From positions 1-35,618 of the forward strand of contig JAABTS010000050.1 of assembly GCA_011389735.1 (NCBI GenBank): a stretch of 35,618 nucleotides of DNA, read 5' to 3'. Positions 1 to 33,321 of the stretch are shown one piece after another. Source of the DNA: Desulfobacteraceae bacterium (lineage in GTDB: Bacteria; Desulfobacterota; Desulfobacteria; Desulfobacterales; JAABTS01). Position numbers and translations under genes: made by a program. Below the pieces are notes generated by a model. That model did not search any database. It had not been told where the DNA came from and saw nothing but the letters and a program-made list of their open reading frames with translations. Positions within the stretch are counted from its first letter, which is position 1. Each line of letters begins with the position of its first letter.

Positions 1-60
1 TTGAATCTGACCGGGAAGACCATCCGGGTTTCCATAGGCTATTTTTTTACGCCCGGTCAG
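1..60. repeat. GC-rich hairpin: near-perfect 14-15 bp inverted repeat (TTGAATCTGACCGGG ... CCCGGTCAGTTCAA) around a ~35-nt loop, immediately left of the AT-rich island
   Basis: Read directly: 5' arm at 1-15 and its reverse complement at 52-65. Composition matches the GC-rich host DNA, not the AT-rich island that follows. The window starts here, so the element may be truncated. Confidence 0.4.
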
Positions 61-81
61 TTCAATCCTTATGGGTTATCC

Positions 82-131
82 TTGATATTTATTCTTGACG
101 TTTAACTTGATATTTATTCTTGACGTTTAAC
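82..131 (+). repeat. Perfect tandem direct repeat, 2 x 25 bp (TTGATATTTATTCTTGACGTTTAAC), each carrying a TTGACG -35-like hexamer
   Basis: Copy 1 at 82-106 and copy 2 at 107-131 are identical. They lie directly upstream of the higB start at 155. Confidence 0.9.
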
Positions 132-148
132 GTTAAGCGTTATATGCT
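120..148 (+). promoter_or_regulatory. Putative sigma70-type higBA promoter: -35 TTGACG (120-125), 17-nt spacer, -10 TATGCT (143-148); 10-bp perfect palindrome TTAACGTTAA (127-136) in the spacer as candidate HigA/HigB operator
   Basis: Hexamers and spacing read from sequence. The palindrome sitting in the spacer is typical of autoregulated TA operons. The ATG at 155 is only 6 nt past the -10, so the mRNA would be leaderless or nearly so. Confidence 0.45.
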
Positions 149-154
149 TAAAAC

Positions 155-436
155 ATGATTCAGTCATTCAACGATAAAGAAACAGAAAAAATTTATAATA
201 GAATCTATTCTAAAAAATTTCCTGATGAGATTCAAAGAATAGCTTTTCGAAAATTAAGAATGATAAACCGGGCTCAAAATATAAATGACATTCGGGTTCC
301 ACCTTCAAACAGATTGGAGAAATTAAAAGGAAAACGAGAAGGTAAATACTCGATTCGAATAAACGATCAATGGAGAATATGCTTTGAGTGGCATGGAAAC
401 GATGCTTTCAAGGTTGAAATCATTGATTATCATTAG
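155..436 (+). CDS. higB: HigB-like toxin (RelE/ParE superfamily, 'plasmid maintenance system killer')
   Basis: 93 aa; ends ...RINDQWRICFEWHGNDAFKVEIIDYH, characteristic of HigB-family toxins. Followed after 8 nt by an HTH antitoxin, the canonical higB-higA order. Confidence 0.85.
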   Translation: MIQSFNDKETEKIYNRIYSKKFPDEIQRIAFRKLRMINRAQNINDIRVPPSNRLEKLKGKREGKYSIRINDQWRICFEWHGNDAFKVEIIDYH

Positions 437-444
437 GAGCAAAT

Positions 445-750
445 ATGAAAATGAATAAAATGGAACCATTACATCCGGGCGAGGTGCTTCGGGAAGAATT
501 TCTTAAGCCATTGGGATTAAGTCAGAACAAACTTGCCATGGATCTTCATGTACCAGCAAGAAGAATAAATGAAATTGTTTTAGGTCGAAGAGGAATTACC
601 GCAGATACCGCATTACGATTTGCCAGATATTTTAAAATGTCCCCTCAATTTTGGCTTGGACTTCAAATGGATTTTGAACTTGATTTAGCAAAAGATGCTA
701 ATGAAAAAAAAATAGAAGAAGAAATTCAACCAATGGCAGCGATAATCTGA
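445..750 (+). CDS. higA: HigA antitoxin (XRE-family HTH, addiction-module antidote protein)
   Basis: 101 aa; N-terminus MEPLHPGEVLREEFLKPLGLSQNKLAMDLHVPARRINEIVLGRRGITADTALRFARYF is the typical HigA HTH fold. Confidence 0.85.
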   Translation: MKMNKMEPLHPGEVLREEFLKPLGLSQNKLAMDLHVPARRINEIVLGRRGITADTALRFARYFKMSPQFWLGLQMDFELDLAKDANEKKIEEEIQPMAAII

Positions 751-882
751 AAGAGAGTATCTCAAATTTATTTACAACGTCTCCTTTGATAAGGCCGTGC
801 CATGCATTCTCGGATATCATTTTTGGGCTAATTTAAAATCAAATAATTAATCTTTTTTATCAATCATAGGAAGGGGCCGGCA

Positions 883-1206
883 ATGAAGGAATCTATTGTT
901 ATACAAATAGAAACATCTTTATTGGCCAAATTGACTGTGTTATCCCAAAAAGAAAAAATGAATTTATCGGGTTTGGTTTCTCTGGCTGTTCAACATTACA
1001 TCGACACACAAGAAAGCCCGAAAGCTGAGACAATTGATTTAAAAAATATCGAAATTCCTCCGGAAGGCATTTCACTTGAGAGGCTTCATATCAGATTAGT
1101 TGAAGAAGCCCTAAGATTAACTGATCATAACCAAACTTCAGCGGCAAATCTTTTAGGGATTACAAGGGCGAAATTCCGAATTTTGCAAAAAAAAATTGGA
1201 TCATAG
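883..1206 (+). CDS. Small DNA-binding protein: N-terminal ribbon-helix-helix-like segment plus C-terminal Fis-type HTH
   Basis: 107 aa; C-terminus EEALRLTDHNQTSAANLLGITRAKFRILQKKIG matches the Fis/NtrC-C-terminal HTH pattern. The N-terminus (IVIQIETSLLAKLTVL...MNLSGLVSLAVQHYI) looks like a beta-strand followed by two helices, i.e. RHH-like. RBS GGAAGGGG lies 8 nt upstream of the ATG. Confidence 0.6.
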   Translation: MKESIVIQIETSLLAKLTVLSQKEKMNLSGLVSLAVQHYIDTQESPKAETIDLKNIEIPPEGISLERLHIRLVEEALRLTDHNQTSAANLLGITRAKFRILQKKIGS

Positions 1207-1235
1207 TTGAAAAACATAATTGTGAAATTATCACC

Positions 1236-1844
1236 ATGGGTAAATTTACGCCTCCTACAATCACAACTGTTCGAGAACATATAGCATGGTCCTATGCGAA
1301 CTTAGCTCGCGCTGATGCAGCTCTAAAAGATGGCGCCAATAAATATAGAGTAGTTCATCATATGATTCGCGGCAAGCTTTTTAAGGGACTCAAGGAACAA
1401 ACAATGAGAATATCATCGCTATACCGTGATGAACGTTTAAAGATGACCGTTCCCCAGGCATGCTATTATTGTGGAAGTTACAAAAATCTATCGGTCGACC
1501 ATCTTATTCCAAAAATCAAAGGCGGCGCCGATGATTCTGATAACCTCATTTGGGCCTGTAGACCCTGTAATAGTTCTAAGCGTGACAAAGATATGCTGTC
1601 ATGGATGTTTAACAAAAAAATGTTTCCATCAATTTTATTATTGCGAAGATTTATCAAAATTGTAGCGCGATATTGTGATGAAAACGAATTACTGGATGAA
1701 AATTTGGAGGTCGCTTTAAAAAAATCACTGCCATTTGATTTGGCTATTTTACCATATAATTATCCACCATTAGAAAAAATGCGCCTTTGGATTCTTCCCG
1801 AATTCCAGGAATCCAAGGAATCTCAAGCACACAATCAATTTTAA
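1236..1844 (+). CDS. HNH endonuclease-domain protein (202 aa) with N- and C-terminal extensions
   Basis: Complete HNH zinc-finger motif: CYYCG-x7-LSVDHLIPKIKGG-x5-DNLIWACRPCNSSKRDKD (CxxC...H...N...H...CxxC). Starts 30 nt after the HTH gene, same strand. Confidence 0.85.
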   Translation: MGKFTPPTITTVREHIAWSYANLARADAALKDGANKYRVVHHMIRGKLFKGLKEQTMRISSLYRDERLKMTVPQACYYCGSYKNLSVDHLIPKIKGGADDSDNLIWACRPCNSSKRDKDMLSWMFNKKMFPSILLLRRFIKIVARYCDENELLDENLEVALKKSLPFDLAILPYNYPPLEKMRLWILPEFQESKESQAHNQF

Positions 1845-1852
1845 CCAATAAA

Positions 1853-1880
1853 TTCATCGGATGAAACCGATGGTTTTATT
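1853..1880 (+). terminator. Possible weak intrinsic terminator after the HNH gene (stem CATCGG/CCGATG followed by TTTTATT)
   Basis: 6-bp perfect stem with a 6-nt loop, directly followed by a T-rich run. The stem is short, so confidence is low. Confidence 0.3.
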
Positions 1881-1928
1881 ATTATCTGATGATTTCTATC
1901 GTTATTTTTTAGAAGGAGGCGACAATCA

Positions 1929-2048
1929 ATGAGCAAAAAAATGCTTAAAATGCGGATATCCGGGGCGGGTTTTTGTTATAAAGAACATAAATCAGTTATC
2001 ATCTTTATAACTGTGTGTACATTAATCTTTTTCCAAATCAGGTTTTAA
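1929..2048 (+). CDS. Possible small hydrophobic peptide (39 aa, MSKKMLKMRISGAGFCYKEHKSVIIFITVCTLIFFQIRF), not in the supplied ORF track
   Basis: Strong SD (GAAGGAGG) 9 nt upstream of the ATG at 1929. The C-terminal ~20 residues form a plausible TM helix. The 3' end overlaps the convergent zinc-ribbon gene. Confidence 0.2.
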   Translation: MSKKMLKMRISGAGFCYKEHKSVIIFITVCTLIFFQIRF

Positions 2049-3074
2049 CTCAATTGCTTTATCAATGATCATTTCTTCATCTATATAATCATCCATTTCA
2101 TCAGCATCATGTGACTTTTCAATATCGGCTACTAAAGCGTTATATGCTTTTCGAAATAATGCTGGAGACATCTTTTTTATATTTCGATCTTCCCTCAAAT
2201 CCTCTGATATACATTCGCTATACAAATCAAACAATTCTAACTCATTCGATTTTTCAACCTTTTTTTGTTTCTCATATTCAGAAATTGTTTCTTCCGCTTG
2301 CCCTGCTGTCAATCCTTTGGGTATTTGAATATTGAAGAATCTATAAAAATCTTTTTGTCCTTTTAAAGCGGGGCGATTATTTAGCTTTTTAACATTTTTT
2401 TCATCGGACAATAAATCTTGCGCCTTATATTTTGCCGTTGTACTATTTAACCCCTTCAATGATACTTTAAAAAACTTGAGGATATCCTCAAAGCGTTCAA
2501 TTTCATCGCAATTATGTAAGCCTATGAGATCTGACAACTGACCCTTTGTCATTTTCTGATCTGCTTTAATTCCAAGTTTTCTAGCATATTTAATCTGGCG
2601 GTCGGTAGAATTATCAAAAAACCAATGTGGGGCAATATCCGGCGTCTCATCAATCTCTTTCCATTTCTTTTTTAGATATTCTAAATCCTCATTGTATTTT
2701 TTTTCTTCTGATGTCTCCTCATCAAGATGCCTTCCTTTAGCCGATTTGGCTTGTAACGATTTTGGCTGGGTTTGGATTCCATTCTTCCCTTTAAATTCTT
2801 CTATGTTTTTTTCATCTTCACTGCTTTTTGATTTTATTTTCTGCTTAACCAAAATAACGCTTATTATTAAAAATATTATTCCAGCAAAAGGACTCACTTT
2901 TAATGAAATAGTAATGACACAAAATAACATAATAATAAAACCAACTATTATAATAATAATTGGTATTTCTTTTTCTTCTGGGAAATTATTGCCACACTTT
3001 GGGCACTTGTTTTTCGTTTTATAAACAACATCAGAGTTAGAAATTTCATTCTTACATTTTTTACAAATTGGCAT
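2022..3074 (-). CDS. Zinc-ribbon membrane protein (N-terminal CxxC-x17-CxxC, two TM helices, Lys/Glu-rich cytoplasmic domain with an internally duplicated motif); function unknown
   Basis: The ORF extends to 3155, but MPICKKCKNE...CPKCGNNF starts at the ATG at 3074, which is the more plausible start. The hydrophobic stretch IPIIIIIVGFIIMLFCVITISLKVSPFAGIIFLIISVILV is TM-like. The internal repeat RQIKYARKLGIKADQKMTKGQLSDLIG / FFNIQIPKGLTAGQAEETISEY is present. AT-rich like the rest of the island. Confidence 0.6.
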   Translation of the reverse strand: MPICKKCKNEISNSDVVYKTKNKCPKCGNNFPEEKEIPIIIIIVGFIIMLFCVITISLKVSPFAGIIFLIISVILVKQKIKSKSSEDEKNIEEFKGKNGIQTQPKSLQAKSAKGRHLDEETSEEKKYNEDLEYLKKKWKEIDETPDIAPHWFFDNSTDRQIKYARKLGIKADQKMTKGQLSDLIGLHNCDEIERFEDILKFFKVSLKGLNSTTAKYKAQDLLSDEKNVKKLNNRPALKGQKDFYRFFNIQIPKGLTAGQAEETISEYEKQKKVEKSNELELFDLYSECISEDLREDRNIKKMSPALFRKAYNALVADIEKSHDADEMDDYIDEEMIIDKAIELKPDLEKD

Positions 3075-3361
3075 TTTAGTTACCATCTTTTTGAGAATAA
3101 CAGTGAACCATATAGCAAAAAAATATATTCGCTTTGGCTTTTCCAGTAAACCCAATCCAAAAGAATAAAAAAAAGATCCTTATTACATATCATGTCATAT
3201 TTCCCCTTTTTTTTATCCAATATCTTTATCAATGTCAATTGCCGATACAAGTTTTTCAGCGATCTGGGATTGATCCGTGAGTTTTTACGTACGCGAGGTG
3301 ATACCGGGAAGGGTGCGACGTCCGGAGGAATTCCGGAAACATGATACTTAATTATTGACAC

Positions 3362-6300
3362 TCAATTAGGCTTCCCCCGAAGCAACCGCGCAATCCCGTC
3401 ATTCCCTTTCTTTTCAGCCCACATCAGGGCGGTCATTCCATTGTTGTCCAGCAGGTTCACGTTCGCCCCGCGCGCCAGCAGCACCTTGACCACATCCACG
3501 CGCCCTTTGGACGCCGCTATCATCAGGGCGGAGTAGCCGTCCCTGTCCACGGCGTCGATCATCGCGCCCTGATCCAGCAGAAAATCGACCACGTTCGGAT
3601 TGTTATGCACCGCCGCCGCCATCAGCGGAGTCGCTTTTTCAGGCGTCCTGGCGTTCACATCCCTGCCCGAACGGAGCAGTTCGCCGAGTTGTTCGATGTT
3701 TCCGTTTTTAATCGCCAGGTAAAAATCATTCTTGCGGCTTTTATGGATGGTTCGCAGGGTCGAAGGCGCAATCGGAGCGGAATTCTTGATCCGTTCCGCG
3801 TAATGCGGATCGACTCCCGCCGCCTGAACCGGAACCACGGAGATCGACTTGATTTCCTTCGCCAATCGATCGATCCTGGACAATGTTTCCTCGGAAAAGG
3901 AGACCATTGTTTGAACCGGCCCCGAAGACCTTTCTTCCCGATCATCTTCGCGAGTTTCAGAACCTCGCGCCTGATAAAACCGCATGAACTGATCCACCCC
4001 GGCCGACAGCGCTCCCCGTATCGACTCCAGCCCGTCCTGAAACGCCGACAACTGGGCCACCACATGCGTCACAGGATTGCTCTCGTCCATCCCCCTCAAC
4101 ATCTGGTTCTTTTGGAACGTCTTCTTTATCTCTTCCCATCGCTCCCGCTGCGTATCCGTCATCCAGCCCGTCAACTCCAAAAACTTGAGCATATTGGCCT
4201 CCGCCCCCGTGGTCAGGGTCTGGGCCTCGCTTTCGTAATGGGACAACAGCAGAGTTTTCAGCTCCGAGTCGTTCATGATCGGAACCAGCTTTTCCGTCAG
4301 CCGGTTCATGTTCCGGTAAGATCCCTGAAGCTTGAACGGAGGCTCCGTTCTGAATTCGTCGGCCATGCCCGCGGAACGGATATATTCCTTATTCACCTTC
4401 AGAATCACCTCCTGAACCGTGATCATCTTTTTCATGACCGACACCATCTCATCGATTTCTTCGCCTGAATAATTCCCCTCAAACTCGACCTCCTCACGGT
4501 CGCCGGTCTTCGCAATCCGGATAATCGAATACACGTCCGCCTGGCTTCGGCTCGACATTTTCCCCAGCACCGGATTGGAGGTCAGCGCGTTTTCAAGGTA
4601 GCTCATTTCGAAATCTTCCCGCGTATCCCCGATAATATCCCCCAGATTGTAAGTATCCGCCCGGTTCGCCAGCATATCCGGTATCTTGAACTTCTCCCCG
4701 CTCTCCGTGTAAGGATTTCCGGCCATCACCACGACCACTTTCTTGCCCCGAAGGTCATACGTCCGGCTTTTGCCTTTATAAACACCTTCAATTTTGCGCT
4801 GGGCGTCGCACAAAGAGATAAATTTTTGTAAGAATTCGGGGTTCAAATGCTGAATATCATCCAGATACAGCATGACATTGTCGCCCATCTCGAGGCAGAG
4901 GTTCAATTTTTGGATTTCTTCCCGGGCTGCGGCGTTGGATGCTTCCTTGGGATCGAGAGACGTGACCGTGTGTCCGATAGCCGGGCCGTTGATTTTCATG
5001 AAGATAACGCCGAGCCGGTTGGCCAGATATTCCATCAGGGTGGTTTTGCCGTATCCGGGAGGCGAAATCAGCAGGAGCATGCCCATGAGGTCGGTGCGTT
5101 TTCCTTCGCCCGCCACGCCGATCTGTTTCGCCAGATTGGCGCCGATCAGCGGCAGATACACTTTGTTTATCAGACGGTTCCGGACAAACGACGTCAAAAT
5201 CCGTGGCTTGAATTCATTCAGCCTCAAACCTTCCCTCATCTCATCGATCAGTTTCCGTTTCAAATCCTGATAACGGTTGTACAGAGGCAAGATCTCCGAT
5301 TCGAACCGGGCGGTTTTGTCCATAAACCGGTAATAATTCAAATGATAGCGCCCGTTTTGAATCACACGATGATCTCCCAGCATCCCGTCTGATTCACGGG
5401 TCATATCCACATCGGCCATATCTTTTTGAACCACTTCCGGCGGATCGAACACAAGAACCGAGGCTTCATCCAGATAATCCAACAGTTCTTCTCTTCCAAG
5501 AGACAGGATATAAGCCTCCATCCAGTCCCGGATCATTTCGAAAACGCTGAGCGGCGAACCGGCCAGTTTTTCCCGCGCGGTTTTGAATTTTTGCAGATAC
5601 AGGCCGGATTTCAAACTCACGGCGAACCCTTCGGACAGCTCGAACGCTTCCTTGCTGACCGAAAATCGCTCCGCCCCGGACGACAACTCCAAAAACAAAT
5701 ATGTCGCCGCATCCGGCGCCGATTCCACCGAAAACAGCCCGGTTCGACGAACGAATTCGTATATCCGGTCGGAAATCTCCGCAATATAACGGGCCTGTTC
5801 CCCCCTGGACGGAAAAATCCCGGATATCATCCCGAACGAACGCAGCTTTTCCAGCATGAGCGATTTTTCAGCCTGTTCTTCATCGGAAAATCCGAGCAGC
5901 ATGAACAATCCGGCCAGCGCCCGAACCCGCGGATGAAATCGCAACAGACCGATTTTGACGTGGATATCGGCCAGCGCCTGCACGATCTTTGCGCAGTCAT
6001 GGTCGTGAACGCCCTTGGAATAGCCTTCGGCATATCTCGGGCCCATGAACCGGCGAACCATGCCCTGAAGCTCTTCTTCGGACGCCTCCGCGAATTCGCT
6101 GATCGCCGAATCTCCACGGCTTTCAGCGTCTTTCAGCATTCGCAACGCCAGAAATTCGCCCCGGTAAACGTCCTCGTTCTCCGACGGAACCTCCATACCC
6201 CACACGCTCCGGGTCTTTATGAACTCAGGATGATCTATCGTTTCGAAAAAATCGGTTCCGGCCAGATGGAAAACCTGCTCGCCGTCCCGCTGTACGATCG

Positions 6301-8914
6301 TAAGATCCAGCGGCTGAACGTTCACGGAAAACCGGTAATCACCGAACCGGATAATATCGGCGCCGTCCTCGAACAATTCTTTCCGGTCTTTGAGCCGCCG
6401 GACGGTGTCTTCCCGCATCGTTTTCAGACGGGATTGAATATCGTCCGCCTTGACCGTATCGTCAAGCTCCCGAAGCTGAACGATAATGTCCCGGATTTTC
6501 TCGATCATCAGATCCGATGCGAAATACCCGTTGATTTCATTGATGTCCGTCATCCCGTCCACGCGGTTCCGGACGCCTTTCAAAATCCGCTCCGCCGCGC
6601 TCATCAACGCGTTCGCACGCTTGTTCCGGGCTTCCACAAGGGACAGCTTCCGGGTTTCAAACGCATGATACAACGCTTCCCGCTTTTCAGACAATTGGAC
6701 TATAAAATCGTCGAACTCGACAAACGCCCCCTCCAGTTCTTCAAGCTGTATCATTAATTTGGTCAGATACTCATCGCATTTATCAGGCGTGTCGCTGATA
6801 TCCAGATAGTTGATCACGCTCTGGTTCAACAGCTTGATCCGGGCGTTGAACCGCTCCACGCCCTCAACGCTTGCAAGGCTTTTACGCTTGTTTTTAAGTT
6901 CCGCCTTGACTTTGTTGATATCGGAATAGATGGCGGAAATATCGTCGATAATTCGGGTGGTTTGAGTGGAATCCTCGATCTTGAGGTTACTGACGATATC
7001 GATCAGCATTTCCAGATCCCCCGAAACAGCGCCCACGTCTTCCTGAATCCGGTCAGCGTCCGCCACACGGTCGCATTCCACGATCCGCCCCCGTGTCTCA
7101 ACGACTCGATTTACATATGGCTTCAGAGCCTCATCGCTCAATAAAAATTCCACACAGGCCGAAGAAACCCGGCCGGTCGCATCCTTGACTCCAGCCTCCA
7201 GAGACTCCACAGCATCCAAATCCACATACCGGAGATCCTTCAAAGATATGATTTCACCCCGAATATTCCGCAATTGGGAAAGCCGTTCCACAAAATGATC
7301 GATACGGTTCATCACGCCGAGATCGACCGACTTGAGAATTTCGCCGGCCCGATCGGAAACCTCCCGAACCCGGCTCTCAGTACCCTTTTTCAGCCGGACG
7401 ACCTTTTCGAACGCATCAATCGCCCCGCTCGCCGTACGCTTGATTTCGAGAACCGTTTCCTTGATATTGAACGCTTCGGGCCGTTCGATCCAGAAATAGG
7501 CGTCGGCGATATCCGTGGATTTTTTGACTATGTCATGGTACAGCCCCGAATAGGTGTCCTCCTTGTTCAAAAGCCTCAACAATTCGTTGCATTCGGCCAT
7601 GCATCGCACAATGTCCTTGTTGCCGACTTTGTAAAGAAAGGCGTCTTTTTTATCCGCCCCAGGAAGCAGGCCCGTAATAAAAGGCGTTTGCATGATCTGA
7701 ACCACATGATGCTTCGTCGGTTCGGGATCGCTGCGCAAAAGCAGCATTTCCCCGCTGTCAAAAATGGAAAAACCGCTGCACACGATCGGCGTATCCACTT
7801 TTTGATCGATAATATTATAGTGCAGCAAAATGTGATCCCCGGTCTCCCGGTTATAAAATACATAAAGAAAATCTTCGCCGTTGGACGACGCCGCCCGGCG
7901 CTCGAAACGCATATCGGCCAGGCCGCTTTCGAATTGCTTGAGTTCGCCGGTCTGAAGATAATATCCGTTGGAAAACATGAGCCCCTGGCTGTCCGGGAGA
8001 AGCACGCATGCGTTTTCGATCTCATCGACACGGCTCACCGCCTGAGTTTTTTCATTGAAGATATAATATCGAAACGCATTTTCCTGGTAAGGCCGGATTC
8101 GCACAAGAATCATGTTACCGACAAAAGCGTAGTAAATTTCAGCGTCATCGAGAGTCTGATCCTTGTTCTCGACGGCTTCCGAATACACCCCGTATCCGTC
8201 GGCCGTGTTGTCCTCCACCTTGAAAGTGATATCCCCGCCGACAGCCTCCACAAACAACCGGTCGTCCAGGGAAATATGAGGATGCACGCCTGCCCGGTGC
8301 TGGTCCCTGGTCGTCCGGGTCCAGGCGAATTCGTGCTGAGCCGGAAACTTGAATTCATGGTCGCTCCGGTTGTCCAGATACACCGGCCCCGATTCCTGCA
8401 TGGCCCATTTGAACGTTTTGATATCAACGACGGATTTGCCGATATTGAAAACCATGAAAAGATGGGGCCCGATGATCGAAAATTTCGCGAACCGCGTTTC
8501 CTTGTAATATTTATACAAGTCCTTGAAATCGGCCTCGAACCTTCCCGAATCCAGAATATCGACCGGCTGTTCGCGAAACGAGCCGTCACGGTATTCGTAA
8601 ACCGCAAACACATCGGATATCCCCGTCTCGGATTTCAGCCCCATACGCACGTTATACCCGAAAATAAACAGATTCCGCCCGATTGAAACCATGTCACGGG
8701 GGATGCAATTGTTTTGGGTTGAAATCCGTTCGGTCGACAAAATTGTGGTTTCGATAGAGCCGAAGATATCCTTGCGGGACTGATTGAGTTCACCCAGGCT
8801 GGATTGCAGGGCGTTCCCCTGAGTCAGCAGCCGGTTGCGGATAATCTCGTAAGCGCCGCCGTCCAGAGCAATCCTTGATTCATCCTGTGCTTTCACATCT
8901 TCATTGCCGGCCAT
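3362..8914 (-). CDS. Giant multidomain protein (~1850 aa): N-terminal ~1250 aa of unknown fold, MoxR/AAA_5-like AAA+ ATPase core, ~270-aa linker, C-terminal 3-4 ankyrin repeats
   Basis: Walker A LLISPPGYGKTTL; Walker B/MoxR-like MLYLDDIQHLNPEFLQKF; sensor-1 VVVVMAGNPYTE; arginine-finger region KIPDMLANRA (nt ~4600-5060). Ankyrin repeats PLMAAAVHNNPNVVDFLL / SALMIAASKGRVDVVKVLLARGANVN / TALMWAEKKGNDGIARLL (nt ~3362-3775). A coiled-coil-rich segment spans aa ~560-900. The track ORF begins with TTG at 8920. The ATG at 8914 has a GGGAG SD 6 nt upstream and is preferred. Confidence 0.85.
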   Translation of the reverse strand: MAGNEDVKAQDESRIALDGGAYEIIRNRLLTQGNALQSSLGELNQSRKDIFGSIETTILSTERISTQNNCIPRDMVSIGRNLFIFGYNVRMGLKSETGISDVFAVYEYRDGSFREQPVDILDSGRFEADFKDLYKYYKETRFAKFSIIGPHLFMVFNIGKSVVDIKTFKWAMQESGPVYLDNRSDHEFKFPAQHEFAWTRTTRDQHRAGVHPHISLDDRLFVEAVGGDITFKVEDNTADGYGVYSEAVENKDQTLDDAEIYYAFVGNMILVRIRPYQENAFRYYIFNEKTQAVSRVDEIENACVLLPDSQGLMFSNGYYLQTGELKQFESGLADMRFERRAASSNGEDFLYVFYNRETGDHILLHYNIIDQKVDTPIVCSGFSIFDSGEMLLLRSDPEPTKHHVVQIMQTPFITGLLPGADKKDAFLYKVGNKDIVRCMAECNELLRLLNKEDTYSGLYHDIVKKSTDIADAYFWIERPEAFNIKETVLEIKRTASGAIDAFEKVVRLKKGTESRVREVSDRAGEILKSVDLGVMNRIDHFVERLSQLRNIRGEIISLKDLRYVDLDAVESLEAGVKDATGRVSSACVEFLLSDEALKPYVNRVVETRGRIVECDRVADADRIQEDVGAVSGDLEMLIDIVSNLKIEDSTQTTRIIDDISAIYSDINKVKAELKNKRKSLASVEGVERFNARIKLLNQSVINYLDISDTPDKCDEYLTKLMIQLEELEGAFVEFDDFIVQLSEKREALYHAFETRKLSLVEARNKRANALMSAAERILKGVRNRVDGMTDINEINGYFASDLMIEKIRDIIVQLRELDDTVKADDIQSRLKTMREDTVRRLKDRKELFEDGADIIRFGDYRFSVNVQPLDLTIVQRDGEQVFHLAGTDFFETIDHPEFIKTRSVWGMEVPSENEDVYRGEFLALRMLKDAESRGDSAISEFAEASEEELQGMVRRFMGPRYAEGYSKGVHDHDCAKIVQALADIHVKIGLLRFHPRVRALAGLFMLLGFSDEEQAEKSLMLEKLRSFGMISGIFPSRGEQARYIAEISDRIYEFVRRTGLFSVESAPDAATYLFLELSSGAERFSVSKEAFELSEGFAVSLKSGLYLQKFKTAREKLAGSPLSVFEMIRDWMEAYILSLGREELLDYLDEASVLVFDPPEVVQKDMADVDMTRESDGMLGDHRVIQNGRYHLNYYRFMDKTARFESEILPLYNRYQDLKRKLIDEMREGLRLNEFKPRILTSFVRNRLINKVYLPLIGANLAKQIGVAGEGKRTDLMGMLLLISPPGYGKTTLMEYLANRLGVIFMKINGPAIGHTVTSLDPKEASNAAAREEIQKLNLCLEMGDNVMLYLDDIQHLNPEFLQKFISLCDAQRKIEGVYKGKSRTYDLRGKKVVVVMAGNPYTESGEKFKIPDMLANRADTYNLGDIIGDTREDFEMSYLENALTSNPVLGKMSSRSQADVYSIIRIAKTGDREEVEFEGNYSGEEIDEMVSVMKKMITVQEVILKVNKEYIRSAGMADEFRTEPPFKLQGSYRNMNRLTEKLVPIMNDSELKTLLLSHYESEAQTLTTGAEANMLKFLELTGWMTDTQRERWEEIKKTFQKNQMLRGMDESNPVTHVVAQLSAFQDGLESIRGALSAGVDQFMRFYQARGSETREDDREERSSGPVQTMVSFSEETLSRIDRLAKEIKSISVVPVQAAGVDPHYAERIKNSAPIAPSTLRTIHKSRKNDFYLAIKNGNIEQLGELLRSGRDVNARTPEKATPLMAAAVHNNPNVVDFLLDQGAMIDAVDRDGYSALMIAASKGRVDVVKVLLARGANVNLLDNNGMTALMWAEKKGNDGIARLLRGKPN

Positions 8915-8960
8915 ACCCAACTCCCTGACGGTTCAACGTCCGCATGCTTTCGAAAACAAG

Positions 8961-12371: not shown

Positions 12372-13124
12372 TTATTGTTTCACAACGACACGGGTGTCGC
12401 AGATACGGTCATGAAGCGTCCTTTTCTGATCGTCAAACGCCGCAATCAGGTATCCTATGCAAAGTATGAAATAGCTGATATATTCAGCTAAATGCCGACC
12501 GAAAGCCAGTTTAAAACCAACCGGGGTTCCGTCCGAACGAACGATTCTCAGGCGGCACGCCATTTTTCCGGGAGTCGCTCCGTGTTTTCCAACAAACCAG
12601 GTTGAATAACCCGCTGCAATGACCATTTGCAATAAAAACGTCACTGCTGGAATAATGAGCGCAAGATCGCTTTCATAGGCTTCCAGAGTTTTCATCGCCA
12701 TCGATCCGGACACCCATGATAAAGAAGCATCGACTATCAGCAAAATGATCCCGTCGATGAACTTGGCGGCGAATCTGATCAGGAATCCGCCGTATTCCAT
12801 GATTCCCGGGAGCGGCGCTCCTTCGCGGACTTTCTGGATAAACAAGGGCTTGCAAGAACCGCATACCCAAAGTTCCTTGAAAGGGATCATTTCCGATTCC
12901 GGAAACAGGTTCCCGCATTCCGCGCAGGTTCGCATATCCGATTCTTCCGCCTCGACTTCGGGTTCAATGGTTTCGACATAATCGCCGAATTTGATCCAAT
13001 GGTCAAGGCCCGACCGCCATACCAGGGTGTCTGATTGAATTGTTCCGTCGGCTACAAATTGGTTGAATTCGTCTTCGGTCAACGGTCCGTATTGTTTCCC
13101 GGATAAGGCGTAATACCAGTTCAT
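12372..13124 (-). CDS. RDD-family membrane protein with N-terminal GYF-like (DUF4339-type) domain and a CxxC...CxxC zinc ribbon
   Basis: 250 aa; WYYALSGKQYGPLTEDEF...TLVWRSGLDHW (GYF-like); CAECG...CGSC; the RDD core is hydrophobic with the conserved R...D...D pattern in the C-terminal half. SD AAGGAG. Confidence 0.75.
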   Translation of the reverse strand: MNWYYALSGKQYGPLTEDEFNQFVADGTIQSDTLVWRSGLDHWIKFGDYVETIEPEVEAEESDMRTCAECGNLFPESEMIPFKELWVCGSCKPLFIQKVREGAPLPGIMEYGGFLIRFAAKFIDGIILLIVDASLSWVSGSMAMKTLEAYESDLALIIPAVTFLLQMVIAAGYSTWFVGKHGATPGKMACRLRIVRSDGTPVGFKLAFGRHLAEYISYFILCIGYLIAAFDDQKRTLHDRICDTRVVVKQ

Positions 13125-13226: not shown

Positions 13227-14324
13227 TCATTGACTTCCAGACAGCCATTCCCGTTCAAAAGTGCGCCATTCGTCCGGATCTGTCGTCCAGCCGGCGTAAA
13301 CAGCGATTCCGAACATATCCAAACGGGACGGCTCGATTGATTGAAGCCCCATTTGAATTCCGTAAATCGCCGATTCTACATTTTCGGCTTCGGGGTGAAA
13401 TCCCTTGCTTTTATTTTCATAGGAAGGGATTCCCATGAACAACAGCACATTCGAATCCAGTACGGTTAAAAGCCGACTTGTCTGACGGCTCACGAGGGAG
13501 GAATATATCCAGTCGTAAGGAATGGCCGTATCATACATCATGACGGCGGCCTGATCGACGATTTCGGCGATTTCCCGGTAATAATCTAGTTTCCAGAAAC
13601 CGCCTGTTTTCATGAATGCTCTTGCGAGTACGTTGGCGCCGGCGAACGGCTCCGGCTTCTCGCAAGACACGGAGAGAATTTTATCGGTTTTGGAGGTTAT
13701 CCGTCGGGCTCGTTTCAATAGATCGATAAAATCCCGGTTCCCGGTGTAAATCGGTTCGATGTTGAAATGAACTCCGTCGAACCCGAGATCTAAAAAAATA
13801 CGGGCGGTGTTTACAATTTCACGGCGTATCCCCATATCGGACAGATTCAGAGGGCCCCCGCCTGCTTTTTCGATCTGACCGATCCATGCATGCATATTGA
13901 TCCGGCTCGTTCGGCTTTTTATCCGGGAAACGAGTTGAGCTGCAAAGGGATATTTTTCAAGTTCGATTTCGCCTTGAGCGTTCAACGGCCCTACATGAAA
14001 ATAAATGTCCGTAATTTTAAACCGTTCAGCCGTTTCGATCAATTGATTGTAGACGGCGTACTCGTGGGATTTACCTACCCAGTCATGTCTCGCCCACATG
14101 GCGTTTCTTCCTTTGGAGCCGAATTTGACCGAAGGCCCGGATCTGTAAATATAATAAGTGTAGGACGCGCCGCTGAAAACCAGCGCAATCAGAAAAATAA
14201 ATCCCGTCAGGAGGGCTTTGACCCAAGATTTCAAGATTCCGTCACCTGCTTTTTTTTTAACCTCCGCTGCTGTAAAAGCATCTGTTTTACCGGCCCACGC
14301 CGCCGCCCGGGCCTGGAAAACCAT
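13227..14324 (-). CDS. Membrane-anchored putative glycoside-hydrolase-like TIM-barrel protein (GH18-like, catalytic motif degenerate)
   Basis: N-terminal signal anchor (LLTGFIFLIALVFSGASY). LGFDGVHFNIEP resembles the GH18 DGxDxDWE motif but reads D-G-V-H-F-N-I-E. The track ORF begins with TTG at 14330; the ATG at 14324 is preferred. Confidence 0.45.
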   Translation of the reverse strand: MVFQARAAAWAGKTDAFTAAEVKKKAGDGILKSWVKALLTGFIFLIALVFSGASYTYYIYRSGPSVKFGSKGRNAMWARHDWVGKSHEYAVYNQLIETAERFKITDIYFHVGPLNAQGEIELEKYPFAAQLVSRIKSRTSRINMHAWIGQIEKAGGGPLNLSDMGIRREIVNTARIFLDLGFDGVHFNIEPIYTGNRDFIDLLKRARRITSKTDKILSVSCEKPEPFAGANVLARAFMKTGGFWKLDYYREIAEIVDQAAVMMYDTAIPYDWIYSSLVSRQTSRLLTVLDSNVLLFMGIPSYENKSKGFHPEAENVESAIYGIQMGLQSIEPSRLDMFGIAVYAGWTTDPDEWRTFEREWLSGSQ

Positions 14325-14400
14325 TATCAAGTCAAGCAGTTCGAGATGAATTTAAAATCAACGTCGCCGGAAAATCAGCTATTGTCGAAGTCTCCGAAAA

Positions 14401-15888
14401 TTACAATGAAGACAGCAAGTCACAGAACAATCTTACTCCAAACCCCGTGCCGCCGGGATTGACGTATGATCCGGCCTTTGAAACATATGCAGGGCCGGCG
14501 ATATCGAGATGCGCCCATTTGGCGTCCTTGACGAATTCGGACAGAAAAAGAGCCGCAATGATAGCTCCCCCCCACCCGGTGTCGCCTACATTTTTGATAT
14601 CCGCCACATCGCTTTTGAGTTTTTCCCTGTAATCGTCCACGATGGGAAGCCGCCAGCAACGTTCGAAAGTCTTACGCCCCGACCGGACCAACGCCTCCGC
14701 AAGCTCGTCATCCGAACTGAAAACACCGGCGACATTTTCTCCCAGGGCCGCCAGGCATGCGCCCGTCAACGTCGCGATGTCGATCACGATATCGGGCTTA
14801 TAAGTCTTGACTACGTAAGCCAGGGCGTCGATGAGAATCAGCCTGCCCTCAGCGTCGGTGTTTAAAATTTCCACGGTTTTTCCGCTGTAGGCGCGGATAA
14901 TGTCCCCTGGACGGGCGGCGTTTCCGGAGGGCATGTTTTCCACGAGAGGAATCACGCCGATCACCTGCACGTCAGGTTTCAACCGGGCGGTCGTAATCAG
15001 CGTGGCGGCGACGGCGGCTGCGCCGGCCATGTCGATTTTCATGTTCGACGACGACCCTCCGGGTTTCAGGTTAATGCCGCCGGAATCAAAAGTGACGCCT
15101 TTTCCTACAAACGCAATAGTCTGTTTCGGCGTCTCGGGCGAGTATGATATAACAGCCATCCCTGGTTTGCTCAGGCTACCGGCCGCCACGGCCAGGATAG
15201 CATTGAATCCGCCTTTTTTCAAATCCGCCGAATTCATCACGGTTACATCGAGTTCTTCCTTTCTACAGGCTTGAGCTATTTGTTCGATGAACTGCTCGGG
15301 ACGTTTGTCATTGGGCGGCGTGGAAACCCAGTCCCTGGCCATGATGGTTCCTTCACAAACGGTCTCGACCTTTTCGATCAGCGACCGGTATTTTTTCACA
15401 ATCGTGTTGTTGGATATCAGATCGATTTTGGAAACAGGCGCGTCTTTTTTCTCGCTCTTATACACATCAAATATATGATTGCCGAGAATCGCCCCTTCCG
15501 CCATCGCCGTGACCACGGATTCCGCGTCCGCTTCGACTCGCGAAAAAGCCGGAGCCATCAGCGCCGCATCCTTGATTTTTTTCTTGATACACAGTTTAAT
15601 CGCCCTCCCCGAAAATGACCGGAATGTATCCACATCAATTTTTTCAAACTTGCCGATCCCGAGAAGAATGATTCGTTCCGCATTTATTCCGGATGGATTG
15701 TAAAAAATGATGTCCTCATCCTTGCGGCCCTTGAAATCGTCATAGGCGGCGGCTTTCTTTATGATGGAAAGCACCCCCGGACGTGTATGGATATCTTTGT
15801 CTTCGCAAACAGGAATGACCAGCGTATCGATTCGTATCTTGTTAAAGTCGATGGATATAAGGTTAAGCACGACAGACTCCTTTTTCAT
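14401..15888 (-). CDS. pepA: Leucyl aminopeptidase, M17 family
   Basis: 495 aa; M17 signature NTDAEGRLILIDALAY, metal ligands (K...D...D...E), and the typical N-terminal domain. Confidence 0.95.
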   Translation of the reverse strand: MKKESVVLNLISIDFNKIRIDTLVIPVCEDKDIHTRPGVLSIIKKAAAYDDFKGRKDEDIIFYNPSGINAERIILLGIGKFEKIDVDTFRSFSGRAIKLCIKKKIKDAALMAPAFSRVEADAESVVTAMAEGAILGNHIFDVYKSEKKDAPVSKIDLISNNTIVKKYRSLIEKVETVCEGTIMARDWVSTPPNDKRPEQFIEQIAQACRKEELDVTVMNSADLKKGGFNAILAVAAGSLSKPGMAVISYSPETPKQTIAFVGKGVTFDSGGINLKPGGSSSNMKIDMAGAAAVAATLITTARLKPDVQVIGVIPLVENMPSGNAARPGDIIRAYSGKTVEILNTDAEGRLILIDALAYVVKTYKPDIVIDIATLTGACLAALGENVAGVFSSDDELAEALVRSGRKTFERCWRLPIVDDYREKLKSDVADIKNVGDTGWGGAIIAALFLSEFVKDAKWAHLDIAGPAYVSKAGSYVNPGGTGFGVRLFCDLLSSL

Positions 15889-16171
15889 TGCCTGATCTTT
15901 TCATAGCCTTCCGGAAACCAAATCTCAACCTGCTGCTCGCCAGGGACAATACTGTTCTCGTATATCCAGGTCCGACAACGCAGGAGGCAGGGGCAGGGGG
16001 CAGGCTCTTTCATAAGTCCGGCTCCAAACCGCCCCCTGAAACCTGCACCCTTTAACCTTGCCGATTGCAAATCCCCTCGGATAGTGAGGAGGTTTTCGTT
16101 CAGCCCCAAGTTATCTGAAAAGCTACAGGTTATATCATTTTTGGATTCCTTGCAATACTCAAGGACGCGTT

Positions 16172-16645
16172 TTACGATCTCAGCGTCGCCGAAAGCCGCA
16201 ATGGATTTAAAAACAACTCCAGGGCGGAAACAATGTCACAAAAAACCAGGTCGGCCGACAAAACCGCTTGAACCGAGGCCCCCTCCTGCTGGATGACTGC
16301 AATCCCCAGAGCGGATTTCGCCAGGGAGGAACGATCGTTGACCCCGTTTCCAATAAAAGCCAGGCGATCAAGCCCGATTCCGCGAATGTAGGATAATTTT
16401 ACAGCATCCTGATTTTCTTTCGGGATAACGAAGAGCTTCACCGGCGTGTGATCGAACAACGCCGCCGCGCTGCCGAAAGTATCCGCCGTCAGCACGTGGA
16501 TGTTAAATTGAGCCGACAGCGCTTCCAGTATCGCCGATGTTCCTGGAATCAGATTTCCGTCCACGGCCAGCGTGCCGTTTAAATCGAGTACGATGTGATC
16601 GATGTTCAGTTGTTTGTCCCGGCCCGGGACATTGAATTTCGGCAT
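16172..16645 (-). CDS. Small HAD-superfamily hydrolase (soluble P-type-ATPase-like, COG4087-type)
   Basis: 157 aa; motif I IVLDLNGTL, motif IV GNGVNDRSSL. SD AAGGATGG. Confidence 0.75.
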   Translation of the reverse strand: MPKFNVPGRDKQLNIDHIVLDLNGTLAVDGNLIPGTSAILEALSAQFNIHVLTADTFGSAAALFDHTPVKLFVIPKENQDAVKLSYIRGIGLDRLAFIGNGVNDRSSLAKSALGIAVIQQEGASVQAVLSADLVFCDIVSALELFLNPLRLSATLRS

Positions 16646-16734
16646 TGTTCCATCCTTTGGGTTTTTGTGTCAATCTCACCCGGTCTTAGGGCAAGCAAGA
16701 CGGTAGTTGTGTTCTGTGGATTCCCTAACATCCT

Positions 16735-18282
16735 TTACGTTTCAATCAGAGAAGTTCCCGTCATTTCTTTTGATTTTTCAACTCCCATGATATCGAGCAT
16801 GGTCGGGGCGATATCCGCAAGCTTGCCTTCTTCCCGCAGCACCGCATCCCGCATGTCGTCGTTGACCAGTATAAAGGGGACCGGGTTGAGGGTGTGGGCC
16901 GTGTGAGGCGAACCGTCCTCTTCCTTCATCATTTCCGAATTTCCGTGATCGGCGGTTATCAGCACCGTTCCTCCCGAATCCAGAATTTCAGGAACTATCC
17001 TGCCCACACATGAGTCGACTGTTTTACAGGCTTCCACCGCCGCTTCGAGTACGCCGGTATGCCCCACCATGTCCATGTTTGCAAAATTGAGAACGATTGA
17101 GGCGTAATCTCTTGACCGGATTCTTTCGATCACCGCGTCCGTAACCGCTTCGGCGCTCATGGCGGGTTTCTCGTCATAGGTCGGAATATCCCTCGGCGAC
17201 GGAATTAAAAGGCGGTCTTCCCGCGGAAACGGTTTTTCCGCGCCGCCGTTGAAAAAATAGGTGACATGGGCGTATTTTTCCGTTTCAGCTATCCGGAACT
17301 GTTTGAGACCCTCATTACTGACGATTTCACCGAAAATCCCGGTTAGATCGGCCTTGGAAAAAGCGACGGGCAAGTCAAAGGTTTTATCGTATTGCGTCAT
17401 GCAAACATAATTGGAAAGGGGCGTAAAATTTCCCCGGTCGAATTGATCGAATTCCATCGCCGTAAGAGCGCGTGTAATTTCCCGAGCCCGATCCGCGCGA
17501 AAATTGAAAAAGATCACCCCGTCGTCTTTACCGATCACGCTTTTGGGATTGCCTGAATCGTCGGTGATCAAGATCGGCTTGATAAATTCATCGGTTTGAC
17601 CTTTTTCATATGCCGATTTTATCGCCTGTACAGAATCTTTTGCATAAATCCCTTCGCCTTTGACCATCATCTTAAACGCTTTTTCGACTCGATCCCATCG
17701 GTTGTCCCGATCCATTGCATAATATCTGCCGCAGACGCCGCCGATCCGGCCATAATCGATTGTTTCAACGTGTTCCAGCACCTGCTCGACAAAACCGGCG
17801 CCGCCGTCCGGCGGCGTGTCCCTTCCGTCCATCAGGGCGTATATGTTGGTTTCCGGGACGTTCCGCTGCTTCGCCATGTCCAGCAGAGCGAACAGATGAC
17901 GGATATGGCTGTGAACCCCTCCGTCGGAAACCAGGCCCGCCAGATGAAGCTTGGAACCCTTTCGGGCAACCCTGTCCATCACCTCGCATAACGCCTCATT
18001 ATTGAAAAAAGAACCGTCTCGTATCGCCAGGTCGATTCGCAACAGATTCTGATAGACCACGCGGCCGGCGCCGATATTGAGATGCCCGACTTCCGAGTTC
18101 CCCATAAACCCTTCCGGAAGCCCGACCGCTTCTCCGGAACAGTGTAACCGCGTTGTTGGATAGATCTTTTTCAAACGATTCAAATTTGGCGTTCCTGAAA
18201 GGTAGACCGCGTTGGAATCGCCGTCAGGAGCGATCCCCCATCCGTCCAGGATCATTAGCATACACAGCGGGCGTTTAGACAT
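16735..18282 (-). CDS. gpmI: 2,3-bisphosphoglycerate-independent phosphoglycerate mutase
   Basis: iPGM hallmarks: MLMILDGWGIA, SGEAVGLPEGFMGNSEVGHLNIGAGR, C-terminal ADHGN metal-binding region. The preferred start is MSKRP at 18282, whose ATG overlaps the rsfS stop (ATGTCTAA). The track ORF extends 50 codons further upstream into rsfS and is unlikely. Confidence 0.95.
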   Translation of the reverse strand: MSKRPLCMLMILDGWGIAPDGDSNAVYLSGTPNLNRLKKIYPTTRLHCSGEAVGLPEGFMGNSEVGHLNIGAGRVVYQNLLRIDLAIRDGSFFNNEALCEVMDRVARKGSKLHLAGLVSDGGVHSHIRHLFALLDMAKQRNVPETNIYALMDGRDTPPDGGAGFVEQVLEHVETIDYGRIGGVCGRYYAMDRDNRWDRVEKAFKMMVKGEGIYAKDSVQAIKSAYEKGQTDEFIKPILITDDSGNPKSVIGKDDGVIFFNFRADRAREITRALTAMEFDQFDRGNFTPLSNYVCMTQYDKTFDLPVAFSKADLTGIFGEIVSNEGLKQFRIAETEKYAHVTYFFNGGAEKPFPREDRLLIPSPRDIPTYDEKPAMSAEAVTDAVIERIRSRDYASIVLNFANMDMVGHTGVLEAAVEACKTVDSCVGRIVPEILDSGGTVLITADHGNSEMMKEEDGSPHTAHTLNPVPFILVNDDMRDAVLREEGKLADIAPTMLDIMGVEKSKEMTGTSLIET

Positions 18283-18685
18283 CTTCGTCCTCCATTTCTT
18301 TTCCCTCAACGGTTTCCCGATTCCTGTCAGATTCAAAATAGGCGGATACGTCAATCCGTCGGGCGTCGCTCCATAGCCCCTCCAGATCGTAGAAAGAACG
18401 GGTTTCCACATAGAAAACATGAATAATGACATCGCCGTAGTCCAGAAGCGCCCAATGGCCGTCCGATATTCCTTCGGCGCTTAACGTGTTAACCCCTTGA
18501 TCCTTCAAATGTCTGCGAACATGGTCGGCGACGGCTTTCACCTGACGGCCGGACCGGGCGCTGCAAATAATAAAAAAATCGGCCACGGACGTCAGATCTC
18601 GTACATCGAGCGCCACCGTGTTCATGGCTTTTTTCCCCGCAATCGCCCGAAGGTAAATATCAATGGGTGAAACATTGTTTGTCAT
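18275..18685 (-). CDS. rsfS: Ribosomal silencing factor RsfS (Iojap family)
   Basis: 136 aa; DVRDLTSVADFFIICSARSGRQVKAVADHV...GHWALLDYGDVIIHVF is the canonical RsfS core. ATGA overlap with the nadD stop. Confidence 0.9.
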   Translation of the reverse strand: MTNNVSPIDIYLRAIAGKKAMNTVALDVRDLTSVADFFIICSARSGRQVKAVADHVRRHLKDQGVNTLSAEGISDGHWALLDYGDVIIHVFYVETRSFYDLEGLWSDARRIDVSAYFESDRNRETVEGKEMEDEDV

Positions 18686-19353: not shown

Positions 19354-19380
19354 GCCTCCTCACCGTGTTTACTTATATTT

Positions 19381-20637: not shown

Positions 20638-20981
20638 GAGCTATTCCCTTCGTCCCGTTTATGTTTCAGCGCTTCGATCAGACAGGCCATCCCTTTGCGG
20701 GTTTCGGGCGTTTGTTCAACGACTTTGAATCCGCTTTGATACAAATCCGCCCTATCGTCCTTACGGCTCCACAAACAGCGCACTGTAAGCCGAATCTGAT
20801 CGGACAGAACCTCGATCCTGATTTTATAATCCTTGCCATCCGTGATCGGCTCCGCACTCATCAGTTTCACGCCTTCCGGATTGATATCGGCTAAATGGCC
20901 GAAAAGCGCGCCGGTATCGTCTTCATAAACCCGGAGGAACCGAACCAGATCCCAACGTTCCATTTTTCGGCTTTCGTTCAT
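20634..20981 (-). CDS. Small PilZ-like protein inserted between proB and proA (possible c-di-GMP-binding domain)
   Basis: 115 aa; N-terminal RKMER (RxxxR) and downstream DINPEGV (D/NxSxGG-like) resemble the PilZ signature. Its stop overlaps the proA start (ATGA), supporting that it is a translated gene. GAGG SD lies 9 nt upstream. Confidence 0.5.
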
Positions 20982-33316: not shown

Positions 33317-33321
33317 AGTTT

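Follow-up and report, generated by a model that had tools for sequence, protein, structure and literature searches.

The 35,618-nucleotide (nt) contig JAABTS010000050.1 of a Desulfobacteraceae bacterium (assembly GCA_011389735.1), analysed over its whole length and called the window below, carries the gene for a 1850-residue protein that is a member of the DUF3686/DUF7902/AAA+ giant ATPase family. This gene is the third cistron of a conserved module that encodes, in order, a YqiJ/NfeD-like membrane protein, a flotillin-like protein of the SPFH family and the giant AAA+ ATPase. The ATPase is probably a motor that acts on membrane scaffolds, and not a chaperone of the MoxR type, as the MoxR-like label in a first-pass annotation of the window would imply, or the DNA repair enzyme that most database names suggest.

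A conserved module with flotillin-like and YqiJ-like genes

The three genes lie close together on the minus strand (Table 1), with 13 nt between the stop codon of the YqiJ-like gene and the start of the SPFH gene and 46 nt between the stop codon of the SPFH gene and the start of the ATPase gene. A promoter and terminator scan of the operon gave counts no higher than those in shuffled sequence. The SPFH protein has a single transmembrane segment (residues 1-31) at its N terminus, followed by the SPFH domain, a long helical region rich in Glu, Lys and Ala, and a C-terminal domain. A Pfam search with the full-length protein returned nothing, apparently on account of the biased coiled-coil region, but the N-terminal 221 residues alone matched Band_7 (residues 1-221, expect value (E) 8e-14). 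The match of the 205-residue protein to YqiJ_N was weak (E 0.02), and neither of the two proteins found a match in a sequence search of the PDB.

Conservation of this arrangement was assessed in a set of 80 related loci, the SPFH gene being counted in those with at least 2.5 kb of upstream sequence and the YqiJ-like gene in those with at least 3.5 kb. The ATPase gene has an SPFH gene ahead of it in 61 of 64 loci, at 35-65% identity, and a YqiJ-like homologue comes before the SPFH gene in 47 of 61. The related loci span Desulfobacterota, Planctomycetota, Verrucomicrobiota, Bacteroidota, Kiritimatiellota, Omnitrophota and Clostridia. Judged from gene order, the co-transcriptional linkage of the ATPase gene to the genes for the flotillin-like protein and its NfeD-type companion appears to be near-obligatory. 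When the neighbouring open reading frames (ORFs) of the 80 loci were clustered, nothing else next to the window gene proved to be conserved. Neither a conserved protease nor any other partner recurring on the downstream side emerged, and no recurrent neighbour had the size of a VWA protein. The first-pass annotation had pointed out that MoxR ATPases normally pair with VWA-domain proteins and that none is present here. The absence of a VWA domain holds for all large ORFs of the window; the idea that the partner is missing does not, because the flotillin-like and YqiJ/NfeD-like genes stand directly upstream and are conserved in related loci.

In Flavobacteriia, Cytophagia and related Bacteroidota, three more genes are found before the module, which encode PspA/IM30 (E 9e-41), a CesT_Tir_1 protein (E 1e-56) and a divergently transcribed HTH protein. 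The same operon has been described, from comparative genomics only, by Ravi et al. (mSystems 2024; PMC11237479), who named the protein 'Betapropeller + coiled-coil + AAA-ATPase' and linked it to PspA systems. Their supplementary table lists a Dokdonia donghaensis locus whose gene order is identical to that recovered here; its ATPase gene belongs to the same family and follows the YqiJ-like gene (which occupies the position of 'YqiJ-YuaF' in that paper) and the Band-7/flotillin gene in the same order. The full PspA/CesT-Tir/YqiJ-YuaF/Band-7-flotillin form was recovered in Flavobacteriia and Cytophagia loci by our own clustering. Compared with this operon, the window locus is without the PspA, CesT and HTH genes. 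It thus has the 'abbreviated' form, operons without PspA being described in the same paper as more widely spread, and it carries an ankyrin module that is not mentioned in the sections of the paper drawn on here. The YqiJ-like/SPFH/ATPase triad is also present in Vibrio campbellii and on pQBR103, a 425-kb megaplasmid of Pseudomonas fluorescens SBW25 (L081, record 85112..97641), where it lies directly 3' of genes for PspA, a rhomboid protease, DUF2491, DUF350 and DUF1190 proteins and a glutathionylspermidine-synthase-like protein. The pQBR103 locus unites two of the PspA operon classes of Ravi et al. (PMC11237479). The link of the ATPase to PspA is frequent but facultative, and that to SPFH is near-constant.

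Family membership, domain layout and the ankyrin tail

The ATPase is encoded by an uninterrupted ORF at 3362..8920 on the minus strand that reaches 5' as far as a TTG at 8920. The likely start is the ATG at 8914, which has GGGAG 8 nt 5' of it, so that the boundaries 3362-8914 given in the first-pass annotation are exact; residues are nevertheless numbered here from the TTG (1852 numbering). NCBI protein P0001 is the identical 1850-residue sequence, for which an exact-sequence look-up returned no contig, and the four motifs that had been quoted for the protein (SPPGYGKTTL, MLYLDDIQHLNPEFL/LYLDDIQHLNPEFL, VVVVMAGNPYTE/VVMAGNPYTE and KIPDMLANRA) are all in the translation. The gene and its layout are confirmed. 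The ATPase is soluble; no transmembrane segment was detected, the highest Kyte-Doolittle mean over 19 residues being 1.35.

The description of a giant multi-domain protein with one AAA+ module was borne out, but the N-terminal 1250 residues are not the unknown region they had been taken for. They match DUF3686 (PF12458; E 7.4e-180, profile positions 2-448 of 448) and DUF7902 (PF25472; residues 597-681, E 7e-26). As in relatives of 1600-1900 residues, DUF7902 falls in the helical region and the one AAA+ module is located near residue 1300 (Pfam AAA match at residues 1282-1402). An AlphaFold2 (AF2) model of residues 1-1150 (window 5471..8920) had a mean predicted local distance difference test score (pLDDT) of 80.7 and placed, in order, a helix, about 27 strands, long helices, a small beta domain and a further helical domain. 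The strands (residues 59-411, pLDDT mostly 80-92) and the long helices (residues 428-849) correspond to the beta-rich and 'coiled-coil-like' regions that had been noticed from the sequence. In Foldseek searches the beta domain gave weak but consistent beta-propeller matches (E 2e-6 to 1e-3), including the DCAF1 WD domain (template modelling (TM) score 0.44 relative to the target), the clathrin terminal domain, IFT-A, Elp1, thiocyanate dehydrogenase and prolyl-oligopeptidase. The top Foldseek rows for the whole 1-1150 model were propeller-plus-helical, 'protocoatomer-like' proteins (IFT-A, clathrin heavy chain and the Nup84 complex); because global TM-scores were only about 0.1, we do not read homology to membrane coats from them.

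More than 3268 homologues were found at E <= 1e-10, which places the architecture of the protein far beyond chance. The best 120 share 52-64% identity across 82-100% of the length, and the alignment is collinear with 14 to 69 homologues at 52-63% identity. A HMMER scan with residues 3-560 against 1.84 billion representatives returned 761 clusters at 50% identity with matches to the DUF3686 region; in full-length cases the domain is always N-terminal in a protein of about 1550-2040 residues, mostly 1600-1900, and the other matches look like fragments. A scan of one genome per species gave at least 568 carriers, among them members of the groups listed above for the related loci and one Chitinispirillaceae metagenome-assembled genome. 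Searches with tblastn added Proteus, Vibrio, Photobacterium, Halomonas, Pseudomonas (plasmid pQBR103), Streptomyces, Nonomuraea and Deinococcus. Among the culturable carriers are Flavobacterium, Leeuwenhoekiella, Hymenobacter, Proteus mirabilis, Vibrio campbellii and P. fluorescens pQBR103. Conservation differs strongly between regions (Table 1). The window protein is a further member of a known family, and the interest lies in the family and not in this copy.

The conserved core is closed by the motif LxxFxDGLxSIR (residues 1631-1642, window about 3990..4030), after which, at about residue 1640, the tails of the family diverge. This motif occurs once in the window protein and in 2-3 copies in the tails of several homologues (P0003, P0022, P0040). 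Most Planctomycetota-type members continue with a linker and a helical module of ~70 residues (VLxxQFxLMxxWMxP...), Desulfonema-type members have added TPR repeats, and many Bacteroidota members end at about 1640 residues. The window protein and its nearest relatives carry four ankyrin repeats in place of the helical module, in agreement with the C-terminal repeats reported earlier (Pfam match at residues 1734-1832; the tandem 33-residue helix-turn-helix repeats fit the Ank profiles). In the preceding linker, model residues 806-827 and 841-879 score under 50 in pLDDT. By BLAST, the ankyrin segment is found in 10 distinct proteins, including P0001, of about 345 family proteins, all 10 being among the closest relatives of the window protein, and the ankyrin-tailed architecture is already public, for example in Desulfobacterales bacterium HSG16 (P0003). 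The ankyrin fusion is therefore a lineage-restricted adaptor swap and not a defining feature of the family, and the repeats are most likely an additional or alternative protein-docking adaptor. The domain combination had been called unusual for bacteria, which applies to the rare ankyrin tail; the core architecture is present in many phyla and has been described in PMC11237479.

Table 1. Features of the window, with residue ranges (1852 numbering) and mean identity to 14 homologues for the regions of the giant ATPase
Feature	Coordinates	Strand	Residues	Mean identity	Basis or remarks
Giant AAA+ ATPase gene	3362..8914	minus			ORF list, translation, GGGAG site, identity to P0001
DUF3686 domain	7493..8809	minus	38-476	61% (propeller)	N-terminal helix, then beta-propeller-like domain of ~27 strands; PF12458
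Long helical region including DUF7902	6371..7639	minus	428-850	60%	
Small beta domain	6236..6358	minus	855-895	62%	4-5 strands in both AF2 models
All-helical domain before ATPase	5216..6163	minus	920-1235	39%	AF2 helices, pLDDT mostly >90; least conserved part of core
AAA+ nucleotide-binding core	4631..5203	minus	1240-1430	86% across phyla	Pfam AAA and AAA_5, AF2 strand order
Helical lid and C-terminal helical domain	3971..4630	minus	1431-1650	60%	AF2 helices
Variable, largely disordered linker	3737..3970	minus	1651-1728	about 14% (linker and tail, about 15%)	Low pLDDT, low identity
Four ankyrin repeats	3365..3736	minus	1729-1852		Lineage-specific C-terminal module
Flotillin-like SPFH/Band 7 protein, 711 residues	8961..11096	minus			Pfam Band_7
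YqiJ/YuaF (NfeD)-like membrane protein, 205 residues	11110..11727	minus			Three transmembrane helices, C-terminal beta-rich soluble domain
RDD-family membrane protein with N-terminal GYF_2 domain	12372..13124	minus			Just upstream of YqiJ-like gene
HigB-like toxin	155..436				
HTH_3 antitoxin	445..750				
Small RHH/Fis-HTH protein	883..1206				
HNH endonuclease	1236..1844				Weak PADLOC PtuB and PDC-M01B matches via HNH motif
377-residue protein with Zn-ribbon, transmembrane segment and K/E-rich region	2022..3155	minus			Only a sub-threshold DUF5855 match

The type of AAA+ module

In the aligned sequences, the nucleotide-binding motifs are intact and extremely constrained. Walker A (GYGKT, residues 1289-1293), the sensor-1 residue N1402 and the candidate arginine finger R1420 are invariant in 15 to 70 aligned homologues, and the GSYRNMN segment at residues 1533-1539 is likewise invariant in homologues. 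The AF2 model contains a pre-sensor-1 beta-hairpin at residues 1376-1389. Pfam AAA (PF00004) scored 29.5 bits with the whole protein and 32.7 bits with the AAA segment (cut-off 21.2), the match spanning only profile positions 1-109 of 131, and AAA_5 scored 24.8 bits against a cut-off of 22. We take the PF00004 match as a sign of the generic AAA+ fold and not of the clade, because the classical clade is without the pre-sensor-1 hairpin seen here. Weak matches to AAA, AAA_5, AAA_22 and RuvB_N were obtained for all 33 AAA segments of the family that were searched.

The first-pass annotation saw MoxR-type features in this module, and the corresponding reading is a MoxR-like chaperone ATPase whose VWA partner has been lost or replaced, with ankyrin repeats in its place. 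The window protein shares with MoxR and RavA the single AAA+ module, the weak AAA_5 similarity (best E 1.7e-8 among the 33 segments) and the hairpin inserted between Walker B and sensor 1, between helix 3 and strand 4, as in MoxR-type proteins; 'MoxR-like ATPase' is also the JGI name of a few homologues. However, AAA_3 (PF07726), the profile of MoxR proper, matched only 1 of the 33 segments (E 0.049) and did not match the window protein itself. The family profile found p97/Cdc48/NSF/Rix7 and then RuvB in the PDB, over the Walker A half only, and no MoxR, RavA, CbbQ or dynein chain was among the 60 PDB matches listed. When the family was aligned with eight E. coli AAA+ proteins as single sequences using hhalign, a coarse test, RavA had the lowest probability (16%), after RuvB (95%), FtsH (91%), ClpX (91%), Lon (86%), McrB (73%), HslU (70%) and PspF (19%). 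The helix-2 beta-hairpin is absent from the AF2 model, in which residues 1312-1329 form a loop and a 4-residue helix only (pLDDT >90). The conserved partners, moreover, are the SPFH and YqiJ-like proteins and not a VWA protein, and the ankyrin tail cannot be a general substitute for a partner because it is absent from about 97% of family members. The MoxR assignment is thus largely refuted by the AAA_3 result, the PDB profile matches, hhalign and the helix-2 topology, and we regard it as very improbable.

In the model, the topology of the AAA+ core looks Lon/RuvB-like. The best profile matches, the pre-sensor-1 hairpin and the predicted lack of a helix-2 insert lean towards Lon, RuvB and ClpX (HCLR). 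Lon gave the longest hhalign alignment (128 columns), which starts at Walker A, passes through sensor 1 and ends at the arginine finger, and in which VDYDLSDV of the Lon pre-sensor-1 hairpin pairs with RTYDLRGKKV. The classical-clade proteins FtsH and p97 resemble the window ATPase in the Walker A region and score close to the HCLR members there. A structure search on the question of the clade was dominated by ankyrin matches.

Similarity to RuvB around Walker A, which is weak, is also one of the few arguments for a DNA repair ATPase. The database names of homologues include 'DNA repair ATPase' (used in both NCBI and UniRef), 'AAA family ATPase' and 'MoxR-like ATPase', and DUF3686 is described in Pfam as 'ATPase involved in DNA repair'. 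The resemblance to RuvB does not extend beyond the generic N-terminal half of the AAA+ module, domain searches found no DNA-binding or nuclease domain, the conserved neighbours encode membrane proteins and not repair proteins, and no paper was found in support of the name. We give this reading hardly any credence, and the names 'DNA repair ATPase' and 'MoxR-like ATPase' are unsupported and probably misleading.

Two features of the core bear on how the ATPase might work. Walker B is DD (residues 1354-1355, window 4856..4861), not DE, in every aligned homologue, a substitution that may reflect slow hydrolysis or a switch-like, regulated use of ATP. The loop that aligns with the Lon pore loop GHRRTYIG is GHTVTSLDP (residues 1316-1324, window 4949..4975), in which S1321, L1322 and D1323 do not vary among 15 sequences and, among 70, S and L hardly vary. 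HCLR and classical AAA+ motors have an aromatic residue in this pore loop. The GHTVTSLDP loop has none, which sets the window ATPase apart from the HCLR motors and makes classical threading of a polypeptide doubtful.

The surrounding window and a candidate role at membrane scaffolds

The 3' end of the ATPase gene is abutted by a block of low GC content (window 1..3250), at 32-37% compared with about 50% in the remainder, which has the appearance of a small acquired island. On the other side of the module, the RDD/GYF_2 gene just upstream of the YqiJ-like gene is conserved at this position in none of the 80 related loci. Positions 13227..35469 hold ordinary chromosomal housekeeping genes, among them those for a GH18-like protein, leucyl aminopeptidase, iPGM, a cytidylyltransferase-like (CTP_transf_like) protein, aldehyde-dehydrogenase-family and amino-acid-kinase + PUA proteins (ProA/ProB-like), a PilZ protein, Obg, L21, glutamate dehydrogenase and split glutamate-synthase-like genes. 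At 31520..35469, on the plus strand, a gene for an XPB/Rad25-type helicase (ERCC3_RAD25_C, Helicase_C_3, ResIII) is followed by one for a 669-residue protein whose sole match is a C-terminal Helicase_C_3; the two possibly form a helicase module unrelated to the ATPase.

The neighbouring island, with its HigB/HigA-like pair and HNH nuclease, raises the question of an anti-phage or conflict system in which the giant NTPase would sense infection and the membrane proteins would be the effectors. Defence systems commonly include giant NTPases with repeat domains, and one copy of the module resides on the megaplasmid pQBR103. PADLOC-DB v2 also returned significant matches (PDC-M72A, Ankyrin, MzaA), but these involve the ankyrin repeats only; the ATPase core had none, its marginal matches being IetA, LmuB and TRIP13 (E 0.003-0.008), and the SPFH and YqiJ-like proteins matched nothing. 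A phage collection held no homologue beyond the ankyrin repeats. Unlike fast-evolving defence genes, the family has an AAA core that is 86% identical across phyla and a near-fixed architecture, and its neighbours in the window and at most loci are non-conserved housekeeping genes. A defence-system or phage origin was rejected on the PADLOC result for the core, the lack of phage homologues and the extreme conservation, and we consider it quite improbable.

For the role of the family, we favour ATP-driven remodelling of flotillin assemblies, PspA assemblies or both, to which we give about an even chance of being right. Members of the SPFH family assemble into cages attached to the membrane; HflK/C, which surrounds FtsH, an AAA+ protease, and QmcA-YbbJ are examples. 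PspA and Vipp1 are homologous to ESCRT-III, and in eukaryotes and archaea it is the AAA+ ATPase Vps4 that takes their relatives apart. The proposal draws on the operon linkage, the link to PspA, the invariant motor motifs and the large protein-interaction domains of the ATPase, on the transmembrane segments that the SPFH and YqiJ-like proteins have and the ATPase does not, and, by analogy, on the precedents HflK/C-FtsH and Vps4-ESCRT-III, and we infer from them the oligomeric state of the ATPase, its physical contact with the SPFH protein and its remodelling activity. At the inner membrane, on its cytoplasmic side, the SPFH protein and its NfeD-like partner would assemble into a large oligomeric scaffold, and the soluble ATPase would dock on this scaffold through its N-terminal propeller and helical arms. 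ATP hydrolysis in a Lon/RuvB-like AAA+ ring would then remodel, disassemble or reset the scaffold, as part of an envelope-stress response. Where PspA is present, the ATPase might also act on the ESCRT-III-like PspA polymer, whose gene shares the operon in Bacteroidota and some Proteobacteria.

Both precedents are partial. The likeness to HflK/C-FtsH is that an SPFH-family scaffold and an AAA+ ATPase would be functionally coupled at the inner membrane, the FtsH side of which is established knowledge. FtsH, a member of the classical clade, is membrane-anchored and includes a protease domain within its ~640 residues, whereas the window ATPase is soluble, has 1850 residues and the pre-sensor-1 hairpin, and has no protease domain; its SPFH partner is flotillin-like with an NfeD-type companion and not HflK/C. 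Vps4/CdvC-ESCRT-III is similar in that an AAA+ ATPase is genetically linked to a membrane-remodelling polymer, which here is PspA in Bacteroidota and on pQBR103. No MIT domain and no Vps4-type sequence relationship were found in the window ATPase, and its size and accessory domains are entirely different.

The same gene linkage can be explained in another way, with the flotillin/NfeD scaffold as no more than a platform where damaged proteins in or close to the membrane would collect, to be unfolded, extracted or passed on by the ATPase. Such client processing would resemble the organisation of FtsH by HflK/C, without a built-in protease, and the propeller and the ankyrin or TPR tails would select the clients. 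The AAA core aligns best with the unfoldase/translocase-type proteins RuvB, FtsH, ClpX and Lon and has the pre-sensor-1 hairpin typical of that AAA+ group, and the variable tails (ankyrin, TPR, helical module or none) look like exchangeable substrate-recognition modules. On the other hand, the pore loop is without its aromatic residue, the DD of Walker B suggests a slow ATPase, and the clustering of neighbouring ORFs gave neither a conserved protease nor a recurrent downstream partner. We judge client processing unlikely, in its platform form as well as in the selection of clients by propeller and tails, though more probable than the MoxR-like, defence and DNA repair readings.

Several observations also weigh against scaffold remodelling. 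The Walker B DD and the pore loop without an aromatic residue, described above, are among them. The SPFH gene is not adjacent to the ATPase gene in 3 of the 64 loci (L004, L021 and L035, with at least 7.6 kb of upstream sequence), and gene linkage alone is no demonstration of a physical interaction between the ATPase and the SPFH protein. For the PspA part of the proposal, no match to PspA or CesT_Tir was found among the large ORFs of the window. No solved structure was found for any member of the DUF3686/DUF7902/AAA+ family, no experimental paper on any member, and no paper that uses the terms DUF3686, PF12458, DUF7902, PF25472 or IPR020958. A literature search on flotillin, AAA and DNA repair ATPase produced nothing relevant, and the ATPase is not mentioned in a Pseudomonas SPFH paper or in Hinderhofer et al. 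(2009). The family is thus recognised but functionally uncharacterised: the domain search suggested earlier as a check does assign the protein to a named family, DUF3686 ('DNA repair ATPase'), but one without a demonstrated function. Ravi et al. (PMC11237479) call the regulation of assembly by PspA homologues without an associated AAA ATPase unknown.

Within the remodelling proposal, a bolder version is that bacterial flotillin (SPFH) cages and, where it occurs, the ESCRT-III-like PspA polymer have in this family their missing ATP-driven motor for disassembly or remodelling. It would then be a bacterial functional counterpart of Vps4 built on a Lon/RuvB-like AAA+ ring. We hold this tentatively and with the odds somewhat against it, as we do the accompanying idea that the propeller and helical arms would grip the scaffold while lineage-specific tails couple further partners. 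For the copy in the window the gain is modest, its rare ankyrin tail being a possible handle on lineage-specific partners. For the dismantling or reset of bacterial flotillin microdomains and PspA assemblies, the giant ATPase is an obvious and testable candidate, because it is nearly always encoded beside a flotillin-like gene and its core is 86% identical across distant phyla.

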